Shown piece by piece: positions 34,675 through 36,729 of a stretch of 39,560 nt of DNA. Origin of the DNA: a virus. Taxonomy: Duplodnaviria > Heunggongvirae > Uroviricota > Caudoviricetes. Under the pieces are notes generated by a model. It was not told where the DNA came from, made no database searches, and saw only the letters and a program-made list of their open reading frames with translations. Within the stretch, counting starts at the first letter, position 1. Every line of letters begins with the position of its first letter. Both the position numbers and the translations under genes were made by a program. The stretch lies in IMG/VR virus record IMGVR_UViG_2548876940_000011; one strand, 5' to 3'.

Positions 34675-36729
34675 ATGTCAGACTCCAAGTGGAAAATGCT
34701 CTCCGCCATGCCCGGAGAGTTTTCAGTCAAGGTTGCCGGTGGCACGGTGGCATTTATTGAAAGCCCTTTCCGCCCTTCGGGTAATAAAGGGGGGATCACC
34801 TTCGCAGACTGCGTGATCCGCTTCAGCACGAAAGAGCCATTATGGGTAATGCCGGTATCCGGTAATCCCAGTGCAGAAATCACCAGTTCAGGCGTGACTG
34901 GCATCATTCCAATCACATCTGACGTGGCCGGAACGCTCACGCCCTCCGACTGGAATGCACCGGATAACGCCGGGCCTTCCGGTAGCACGAATGGCAGCAG
35001 TTCAGAGCCGGAATATTACTTTGTTGTCATTCTCGCGGGTCAGTCAAATGGCATGGCCTACGGCGAGGGGCTGCCGTTACCGGATTCGTTTGACCGCCCG
35101 GACCCACGCATTAAGCAACTGGCACGCCGCAGTACGGTAACGCCCAACGGTACGTCGTGTACATACAACGACATCATTCCGGCAGACCACTGCCTGCATG
35201 ATGTTCAGGATATGAGCGGGATAAACCACCCGAAAGCTGATCTGGCAAAAGGCCAGTACGGGACTGTCGGTCAGGGGTTGCATATTGCCAAAAAACTGCT
35301 TCCCTATATCCCACAGAATGCCGGGATACTTCTGGTGCCCTGTTGTCGTGGCGGGTCAGCATTCACCACTGGAGCCGACGGCTCATTCAGTGAGGCCAGC
35401 GGTGCTTCCGCTGATTCTTCACGCTGGGGGGCCGGTAAACCTCTGTATCAGGACCTGGTAAGCCGCACCAAAGTCGCGCTGGCGAAAAAACCGAAAAACA
35501 AACTTCTGGCTGTGGTCTGGATGCAGGGAGAGGCAGACCTTGCCTCAGGAAGCCAGCAGCATAATAGTTTATTCACGGCCATGGTTCAGCAGTTCAGAAC
35601 TGACCTGGCTCCGCTTGCTGCGCAGTGCGTGAGTGGAAATGCCACCACGGTGCCGTGGATTTGCGGTGATACCACGTATTACTGGAAAAACGCTGGCACC
35701 GATAAATATGAGGCAGTATACGGTGGCTACAAAGGCAAGGAAGCACAGAAAATTTTCTTTGTACCGTTCCTGACGGATGAGAATGGACAGAGCACGCCAA
35801 CGAATGCTCCGGCGGAAGACCCGGATATTGTGGCTGTCGGGTATTACGGTGCAGCATCCCGAACCCAGGGCAGTTTTGTTTCGACACAGCGTGACAGCCA
35901 TTTCAGCTCATGGGCACGCAGGGGCGTCATTTCAGACCGTCTGGCCTCAGCTATTATGCTCCATGCAGGGCGCACGGCTGAACTGATGCGCGGGCAGACC
36001 GTGACACCACCGGATGAGAAGCCGTCACCTGATACACCATCAAAACCGTCCACGCCACCCGCAGACACCACGACGATGAGTACGCTATTTGCTTACCGGG
36101 CATCTGAGTCTGAAGGACGGTTGACACCACAGGGTTGGGCTGCCGGAGGTGGCAAGGCTCAAATCGTGGATGATGCCGGAGCCAGCGGGGGTAAGGCAAT
36201 GAAACTGACCAAGGAAACAGGAAGAGCCCCCTGGTACCTTGAGCATGATGCTGGTAATGGTGCGGACCTGCTGGGTAAAGGTGGTCTTGTCAGTTGTCGT
36301 TTTAAACTCGATGGCGCGCTTACGGCTAATCAGTACGCACTGGCGCTGTACTGGCCGGTTTCTGCCCTGCCGCAAGGGGTTACTCTGGAAGGAAATGCCG
36401 GTCATAACCTGCTGGCATCGTTCTACGTACAGAGCGATGCCACAGACCTTAACGTGATGTATCACAAAGGAAACACGGCGCAGAACACGAAGCTGGGGTC
36501 ATTCGGCGCATTTAATAACGAATGGCATACGCTGGGCTTCCGTTTTGCCGGTAACAACAGTATTGAGGTGACGCCGGTCATTGATGGTAAGGACGGGACA
36601 CCATTCATGCTGTCGCAGTCTCCGGTCGGCACGTTTACGGCAGACAAGTTGCGCGTGACCGATATCACTAAAAATGCGACTTACCCGGTACTGATTGACA
36701 GTATCGTGGTGGAAGTGAATAACGCGTAA
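34675..36729 (+). CDS. SGNH-hydrolase / sialate-O-acetylesterase-like protein with lectin-like C-terminal domain (NanS-p-like)
   Basis: 684 aa; esterase block YYFVVILAGQSNGMAYGEG with later WMQGEADL; Pro/Ser/Thr linker (PPDEKPSPDTPSKPSTPPADTTT); C-terminal ~200 aa resembles a concanavalin-like lectin. Confidence 0.7.
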   Translation: MSDSKWKMLSAMPGEFSVKVAGGTVAFIESPFRPSGNKGGITFADCVIRFSTKEPLWVMPVSGNPSAEITSSGVTGIIPITSDVAGTLTPSDWNAPDNAGPSGSTNGSSSEPEYYFVVILAGQSNGMAYGEGLPLPDSFDRPDPRIKQLARRSTVTPNGTSCTYNDIIPADHCLHDVQDMSGINHPKADLAKGQYGTVGQGLHIAKKLLPYIPQNAGILLVPCCRGGSAFTTGADGSFSEASGASADSSRWGAGKPLYQDLVSRTKVALAKKPKNKLLAVVWMQGEADLASGSQQHNSLFTAMVQQFRTDLAPLAAQCVSGNATTVPWICGDTTYYWKNAGTDKYEAVYGGYKGKEAQKIFFVPFLTDENGQSTPTNAPAEDPDIVAVGYYGAASRTQGSFVSTQRDSHFSSWARRGVISDRLASAIMLHAGRTAELMRGQTVTPPDEKPSPDTPSKPSTPPADTTTMSTLFAYRASESEGRLTPQGWAAGGGKAQIVDDAGASGGKAMKLTKETGRAPWYLEHDAGNGADLLGKGGLVSCRFKLDGALTANQYALALYWPVSALPQGVTLEGNAGHNLLASFYVQSDATDLNVMYHKGNTAQNTKLGSFGAFNNEWHTLGFRFAGNNSIEVTPVIDGKDGTPFMLSQSPVGTFTADKLRVTDITKNATYPVLIDSIVVEVNNA

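Follow-up and report, generated by a model that had tools for sequence, protein, structure and literature searches.

What would a sialate O-acetylesterase gene do beyond the tail-fibre genes of a Mu-like phage, and how would its product reach a substrate? We addressed this question for the IMG/VR record IMGVR_UViG_2548876940_000011, a stretch of 39,560 nucleotides referred to here as the window, in which an open reading frame (ORF) of 684 amino acids (aa) lies at 34675..36729 on the plus strand. An initial annotation had read this ORF as an SGNH/SASA-type esterase block joined by a Pro/Ser/Thr linker to a lectin-like C-terminal domain, carried by a Mu-like phage, and had likened it to the NanS-p esterases of lambdoid Shiga toxin (Stx) prophages. 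Our analysis suggests, with a probability of roughly 0.8, that the gene encodes a three-module NanS-p-type esterase that would be released at lysis to de-O-acetylate mucin sialic acids, and whose body recombines with lambdoid alleles.

It is believed that NanS-p enzymes open O-acetylated mucus sialic acids to pathogenic and commensal E. coli, and with the present locus the trait reaches transposable phages as well. Family, structure and activity of the enzyme have been described before, and databases already list the exact protein, as 'sialate O-acetylesterase' and as 'DUF6645 domain-containing protein'. In the literature searched, we found no paper that connects nanS-p or O-acetylesterases with Mu-like phages in E. 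coli, nor any description of a nanS-p block in Mu-like prophages, of the alternative N-terminal module reported below, or of recombination with lambdoid alleles at a domain junction.

A true NanS-p homologue in a Mu-like prophage

The ORF opens with ATG and is real: it coincides with the RefSeq coding sequence WP_024228569.1 of E. coli S1-CAM-01-A, where it bears the second of the two names above, and positions 33800-38000 of the window are 100% identical to that strain. Pfam, PHROGs, homology to solved structures and a search of phage records all identify the product as a Mu-type NanS-p sialate O-acetylesterase, with phrog_143 covering aa 71-684 (expectation value, E, 1.5e-295). Across phage records, tblastn returned homologues in 347, nearly all of them Stx-converting or other lambdoid phages, at 63-68% identity and with coverage running from aa ~63-100 to the end. 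Full-length matches were confined to two records, both inside an annotated 'inserted Mu-like phage'. By sequence, therefore, the protein is a true NanS-p homologue, a member of the prophage sialate O-acetylesterase family, and the likeness to Stx-phage alleles drawn by the initial annotation was sound but understated.

The esterase domain occupies aa 111-430 (35005..35964, plus strand), as assigned from homology to 3PT5 and from block motifs. Residues 110-428 match 3PT5, the 9-O-acetyl-Neu5Ac esterase NanS/YjhS of E. coli O157:H7, with E 1.2e-116 and 70% identity across 319 aligned aa, and the Pfam SASA family (PF03629) matches aa 117-312 well above its cutoff (E 1.5e-13; 51.4 bits vs 24.8). 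The catalytic blocks described for 3PT5 are GQSNA (Ser19), RGGSAF, MQGEFD and SHFS (His301) (PMC10792757). All four are kept in the window protein, as GQSNG at aa 122 (Ser124), RGGSAF at 225, MQGEAD at 283 and RDSHFS at 406 (His409), the first lying within the motif AGQSNGMAYGEG at aa 121-132. The SGNH-type signature and the catalytic serine and histidine on which the esterase assignment depended are thus present, and Ser124 and His409 are the predicted nucleophile and base.

The Pro/Ser/Thr-rich linker noted earlier was also recovered, at aa 431-468 (35965..36078, plus strand; 'TPPDEKPSPDTPSKPSTPPADTTT'), where it joins the esterase to a C-terminal domain at aa 469-684 (36079..36726, plus strand). 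This last part is a predicted lectin-like, jelly-roll carbohydrate-binding domain of the DUF6645 family: aa 469-683 match 6YP6, the C-terminal domain of NanS-p, with E 6.9e-98, and Pfam DUF6645 (PF20350) matches aa 533-650 above its cutoff (E 1.1e-67). Four aromatic residues have been proposed to bind carbohydrate in vb_24B_21, namely Y510, Y515, Y540 and F611 (PMC10462455); Y554, Y559, Y584 and F654 of the window protein align with them, so that all four are conserved. Because a full-length AlphaFold2 model built from a 15-sequence alignment was unusable (mean predicted local distance difference test score, pLDDT, 43; predicted template modelling score 0.35), these fold assignments rest on sequence identity to solved structures.

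Two features had escaped the initial annotation. The first ~110 aa are a separate module specific to the Mu lineage, and the gene travels with two small genes, encoding DUF1378 and DUF826 proteins.

An all-beta N-terminal module in place of DUF1737

Residues 1-82 (34675..34920, plus strand) form a module that belongs to no Pfam family and is not DUF1737. Its predicted structure over aa 1-80 is all-beta, with ~6 strands and a pLDDT of ~80 over aa 10-70, and is followed by a first linker at aa 83-110 (34921..35004, plus strand) that is rich in G, S, N and P and predicted to be disordered. DUF1737, by comparison, folds as one helix and three strands (bioRxiv 10.64898/2026.04.10.717836). When the isolated N-terminus (aa 1-110) was searched, neither DUF1737 (PF08410) nor any other Pfam family matched at E <= 10, and a BLASTP alignment with a DUF1737-type allele began only at aa 103. 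Sequence and predicted structure together indicate that the usual DUF1737 is here replaced by an unrelated all-beta domain of ~80 aa.

The distribution of this domain is narrow. An exhaustive phmmer search against 1.84 billion representative proteins gave three matches, all of them esterase fragments: two are pieces of the same E. coli protein, and the third (P0126) is a 30%-identical esterase, truncated at a contig end, that lies just downstream of gin in a Mu-like prophage. P0126 and its cluster mates come from Salmonella enterica, apart from one fragment named Serratia marcescens. Within IMG/VR, 34 loci carry the domain, in two clades that are at least 91% and 52-58% identical to the query (the two E. 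coli clades share ~59% identity over the domain). These 34 loci and one Salmonella locus all show the order gp48, S, invertible fibre segment, gin, esterase, DUF1378, DUF826, com/mom, and the domain precedes the esterase in every locus found. It occurs in 32 of 5,426 complete E. coli genomes, and a scan of one genome per species detected none. The domain was thus found only on esterases of Mu-like prophages, in the two clades of E. coli/Shigella, in Salmonella and in the one Serratia-named fragment.

All eight members of the Salmonella/Serratia P0126 cluster are partial, and the one contig examined (L005, 10001-10461) ends inside the gene. Assemblies probably break inside the esterase, its body being common to several prophages per genome, and the distribution of the Mu-type domain is probably underestimated.

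Purifying selection and exchange of the enzyme body

We considered whether the gene might be a decaying hitch-hiker, a non-functional leftover of recombination between lambdoid and Mu-like prophages, since truncated copies of 318 (L021), 499 (L013) and 523 aa (L033) exist elsewhere and the window has lost the adjoining gin and Sv' segment. The evolutionary record makes this very improbable. The ORF is intact over its 684 aa, with all catalytic and binding residues, and its architecture is kept in Salmonella and in two E. coli clades whose synonymous divergence is saturated. The ratio of non-synonymous to synonymous substitution (dN/dS) is 0.04-0.18 in every segment. For the N-terminal module it is 0.035 within clade 1, and between clades the module has a proportion of non-synonymous differences of 0.24 against a saturated synonymous proportion of 0.76. 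Purifying selection acts on every domain.

The segments nevertheless have different histories. From aa ~95 on, the window protein shares 87-90% identity with some DUF1737-type alleles of non-Stx lambdoid phages (647-650 aa), including long identical stretches through the second linker and the binding domain, and DNA homology to an allele of this kind starts at ~35005-35008 (codon ~111, 'PEYYF') and ends inside the DUF1378 gene. Conservation within clade 1 is 95-100% for the N-terminal module and 65-100% for the binding domain, and synonymous divergence is 0.15 in the N-terminus vs 0.46-0.62 in the body. From the high identity of the body, the start of homology at the junction and the unequal divergence of the segments, we conclude that the body has been exchanged between Mu-like and lambdoid prophages. 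As read from these sequences, the non-homologous N-terminus is the left boundary of the exchange and stays tied to the phage type.

A DUF1737-type NanS-p homologue was also seen directly after the lysis genes of the P2-like Escherichia phage vB_EcoM-569R5 (Peduoviridae; L043, 2770-4020); the record stops before the gene does. The esterase thus also occurs outside lambdoid and Mu-like phages.

A further proposal is that the protein is a receptor-modifying enzyme which, like the deacetylating tailspikes of other phages, acts on O-acetylated O-antigen or polysialic acid capsule and so aids adsorption or blocks superinfection. Such a role has been raised for NanS-p in a review (PMC8065619), the gene adjoins the tail-fibre region, and aa 211-312 of the esterase weakly match the 'tail protein' family phrog_25867 (E 1.4e-6). 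However, lysis-region alleles of lambdoid prophages that have other tails match the catalytic and binding domains at 87-90% identity. Pfam and PHROGs searches detected no attachment domain of the tailspike or fibre kind, nor a trimeric beta-helix or fibre body, and their one 'tail' match is that to the esterase segment itself. Between the gene and the fibre operon lie, moreover, a convergent gene, a hairpin and gin, and the biochemistry of relatives points to free and mucin-bound sialic acids (PMC8065619). We consider receptor modification unlikely.

Could the N-terminal module anchor the enzyme to the particle?

In phage phi24B, the DUF1737 of NanS-p gp84 (aa 2-57) binds capsid hexons as a hexamer, and fresh virions contain full-length NanS-p, of which the enzyme part is later cleaved off (bioRxiv 10.64898/2026.04.10.717836). 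The virion-attached module that the initial annotation had offered as one option thereby has a direct precedent. By analogy, the window protein might be displayed on virions: its N-terminal domain would fasten the esterase and lectin-like parts to the Mu-type particle, at the capsid hexons, the sheath or the baseplate, and the particle could in this way bind and edit sialoglycans of mucus or cell surfaces. Such display would refine the delivery route and is compatible with a lysis-released NanS-p-type esterase. Several observations point this way: DUF1737 has been swapped for an unrelated domain exactly at the domain boundary; the new domain is strictly associated with the Mu lineage (two E. 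coli clades and the 30%-identical Salmonella version); it is under strong purifying selection and has remained fixed, at 95-100% in clade 1, while the body behind it was swapped; and the segment behind it is a flexible linker, in keeping with a tether. Against this, the gene lies outside the structural operons, and fold matches of the domain were uninformative, with no informative structural neighbour found. We hold virion display to be a tentative idea, and somewhat doubtful.

A more general form of the same idea, to which we give similarly guarded credence, is that NanS-p N-terminal modules are interchangeable, phage-type-specific virion anchors, with DUF1737 serving lambdoid and P2-like particles, the beta domain serving Mu-like ones, and the body being traded freely among unrelated phage lineages through recombination at the junction. 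The presence of DUF1737-type alleles in a P2-like phage counts against the anchor for Mu-type particles, since the module is not matched one-to-one with particle type. Two N-terminal modules on one enzyme body constitute a natural experiment on what such modules do. If the anchor idea is true, Mu-type phages would also display a sialoglycan-binding, de-O-acetylating enzyme on their particles; if it is wrong, the finding is just another NanS-p allele.

Proposed function of the Mu-type NanS-p

The reading that we favour is a NanS-p-type esterase released by lysis. No signal peptide or membrane segment was found in the protein, the highest 15-aa Kyte-Doolittle mean in the N-terminus being 1.08, so the enzyme is probably cytoplasmic and would reach its substrate only at phage lysis. 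We propose that it would be made in the cytoplasm and set free when the induced phage lyses the cell, that the C-terminal domain would hold it on sialoglycans, and that the esterase would remove 9-O-acetyl groups from Neu5,9Ac2 on mucin glycans. Extrapolating from experiments on lambdoid NanS-p, the de-O-acetylated sialic acid might then be used by surviving lysogens. According to a review (PMC8065619), recombinant NanS-p enzymes remove O-acetyl groups from both Neu5,9Ac2 and mucin glycans, and growth is supported by them.

Some points weigh against this proposal. Its substrate specificity is extrapolated from alleles that are 63-90% identical, and the absence of DUF1737, which defines the family, means that delivery may differ from that of lambdoid NanS-p. 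Sigma-70 promoter-like sites were no commoner than in shuffled sequence, and none upstream of the ORF was convincing. In the window gin and whatever preceded it are deleted, and the gene may be expressed in the lysogen or only late.

The esterase gene travels in a three-gene block

Two small genes follow the esterase on the plus strand. The first encodes a DUF1378 protein of 64 aa (36862..37056; Pfam E 1.2e-31), whose translation shows by eye a hydrophobic N-terminal stretch, and the second a small acidic DUF826 protein of 84 aa (37092..37346; Pfam E 6.4e-16). Across lambdoid and Mu-like phages, identity is 57-100% for DUF1378 and 70-100% for DUF826. In an Stx2a phage, stx2AB is followed by nanS-p, then by two genes of 59 and 81 aa, in that order, and by holin; the order in a non-Stx lambdoid prophage is Q, tRNAs, nanS-p, DUF1378, DUF826, holin and lysozyme. 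Since the same two small genes follow the esterase in the window and in lambdoid phages, the shared unit is a three-gene block and not a single cargo gene. The block sits between gin and com/mom in Mu-type loci, which belong to a family of Mu-like prophages related to Sp18, and after stx/Q and before holin in lambdoid ones; the enzyme and its two small companions thus move as a unit between unrelated phage types. The constant linkage of DUF1378 and DUF826 with nanS-p suggests a functional tie to the esterase.

The gap between nanS and DUF1378 holds an element of ~83 nucleotides (nt) on the minus strand (36735..36817), which ends in a 10-bp GC hairpin and a run of seven U, with TTGACA boxes ~40 nt upstream. 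In a MAFFT alignment inspected by eye, the hairpin sequence differs between Mu-type and lambdoid loci while its complementarity is kept. We regard the element as a candidate small-RNA (sRNA) gene travelling with the module, or alternatively a candidate minus-strand terminator. Prophage sRNAs have been described flanking the sialic-acid esterase gene in lambdoid prophages (2026 preprint). Identity with Esr41 was set aside, the Rfam score being 22 bits against a gathering score of 102, and the element is kept as a hairpin at a conserved position; the lambdoid loci L004 and L040 gave no Esr41 match at E <= 0.01. The STnc100/PasD-type sRNA found upstream in the lambdoid locus was not seen in scans covering the Mu-type loci.

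The Mu-like host prophage and its rearranged right arm

The assignment to a Mu-like phage is borne out by Pfam and PHROGs matches across a complete prophage. After a CI-type repressor (556..1167, minus strand) come MuA (1601..3691) and MuB (3767..4699), both recognised by Pfam, and further genes encode a Mu portal, MuF, protease I, the head protein gpT (20626..21573), sheath (23228..24730), tape measure, baseplate, fibre, fibre-assembly and Com/Mom proteins. The prophage spans ~200 to ~39084 and is bordered on both sides by ACGGA (195-199 and 39083-39087), consistent with a short target duplication. Its right terminus is ambiguous by 2 bp, and it interrupts the tail-fibre gene of a lambdoid prophage (N-terminal part at 39062..39385, minus strand; PF08400). 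A copy of the prophage, 99.95% identical over 33000-39090, lies in bcsA of strain S1-CAM-01-A, a second insertion site as expected of a transposable phage.

On the left, the module is bounded by the tail-fibre gene S (32903..33814, plus strand) and a hairpin (33823-33845). The only tail-fibre assembly gene follows on the opposite strand to S (33849..34421, minus strand). The initial annotation had placed the esterase where Mu carries its second fibre cassette and gin, and had given it an AT-rich upstream region of its own. The gene does lie beyond the fibre genes, but in relatives it comes directly after gin and does not replace it: where gin is intact, the esterase begins ~86-110 bp past it on the same strand (in L002, gin is at 6006..6577 and nanS at 6663). 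The 253-bp non-coding region upstream (34422..34674, plus strand) is indeed AT-rich, at 41% GC vs 55% for the esterase gene. It is, however, partly a deletion scar, because it contains the last ~66 bp of gin (34522-34588), followed by a gin-nanS spacer of ~86 bp as in relatives. A weak Shine-Dalgarno-like 'AGAAAAGA' precedes the esterase ATG.

In relatives, the interval from the fibre-assembly gene to the esterase holds part of the Sv' fibre half together with gin. This ~1 kb is deleted in the window apart from the end of gin, and nine IMG/VR loci likewise lack gin and Sv' at this place. No gix-like sites were found in the window, consistent with loss of the gin segment. The invertible fibre segment is thus frozen in the window, and related loci carry both orientations.

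To the right of the block, a 97-aa ORF on the minus strand (37514..37807; an 86-aa hypothetical protein in RefSeq) occurs only in clade-1 Mu-type loci, is absent from the Sp18-like clade and has promoter-like sites at 37828-37799. It matched no family in Pfam, PHROGs, NCBIfam or PADLOC, and is possibly a moron. NCBIfam and PADLOC scans yielded nothing useful: no PADLOC defence model matched the esterase, DUF1378 or the reverse ORF, and the match for DUF826 was negligible (E 0.0076). The right-end Mu genes com (38064..38264, plus strand) and mom (38218..38955, plus strand; Mom PF25680, E 1.6e-77) bound the inserted module on this side. TTATN6ATAA, which we take to be the consensus of Mu C-protein-type late promoters, matched once (37067), upstream of no operon; 22 of 100 shuffles reached this count, and the candidate was dropped.

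Comparison with known systems

The closest known counterparts are the lambdoid/Stx NanS-p proteins, with which the window protein shares the esterase and lectin-like domains, catalytic blocks, binding-site aromatics, Pro/Ser/Thr linker and lack of a signal peptide, as well as the downstream DUF1378 and DUF826 genes. It differs in carrying an unrelated beta domain in the position of DUF1737, in lying between the gin remnant and com/mom instead of between stx/Q and holin, and in being borne by a Mu-like transposable myovirus. Chromosomal NanS (YjhS) of E. coli has the same SASA/SGNH domain, including GQSN, QGE and a His without the block V Asp. NanS is a product of the nanCMS operon that consists of one domain, has a signal peptide and resides in the periplasm, whereas the window protein is phage-borne, has two extra modules and has no export signal.

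Among Mu-like elements, the Sp18-type Mu_JNE082796 of STEC (L041; inserted in Stx phages, LC727881) shares most backbone genes at 90-99% identity, the order gin, esterase, DUF1378, DUF826, com, and the same type of N-terminal module. Phages of this type have been described as Sp18-like (PMC10132054). The esterase block is, in contrast, only 59-74% identical and the most divergent part after the repressor, and Mu_JNE082796 keeps gin and has, judging from sequence, an apparent cytosine methyltransferase gene in the place of mom. Gene by gene, the two prophages form a mosaic: the divergent genes are the repressor (26% identity), the orf at 8278..8829 (70%), protease I (74%), sheath (71%) and fibre-assembly (64%), and gpT is 90% identical; sheath and protease are the structural genes whose divergence is closest to that of the esterase N-terminal module.

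Phage Mu itself has the same overall layout: the transposase lies at the left, and the right part holds S, the invertible fibre segment, gin, com and mom. It is not known to carry anything between gin and com. Relative to Mu, the window carries ~3.4 kb inserted between these two genes, comprising the esterase, DUF1378, DUF826 and the reverse ORF.

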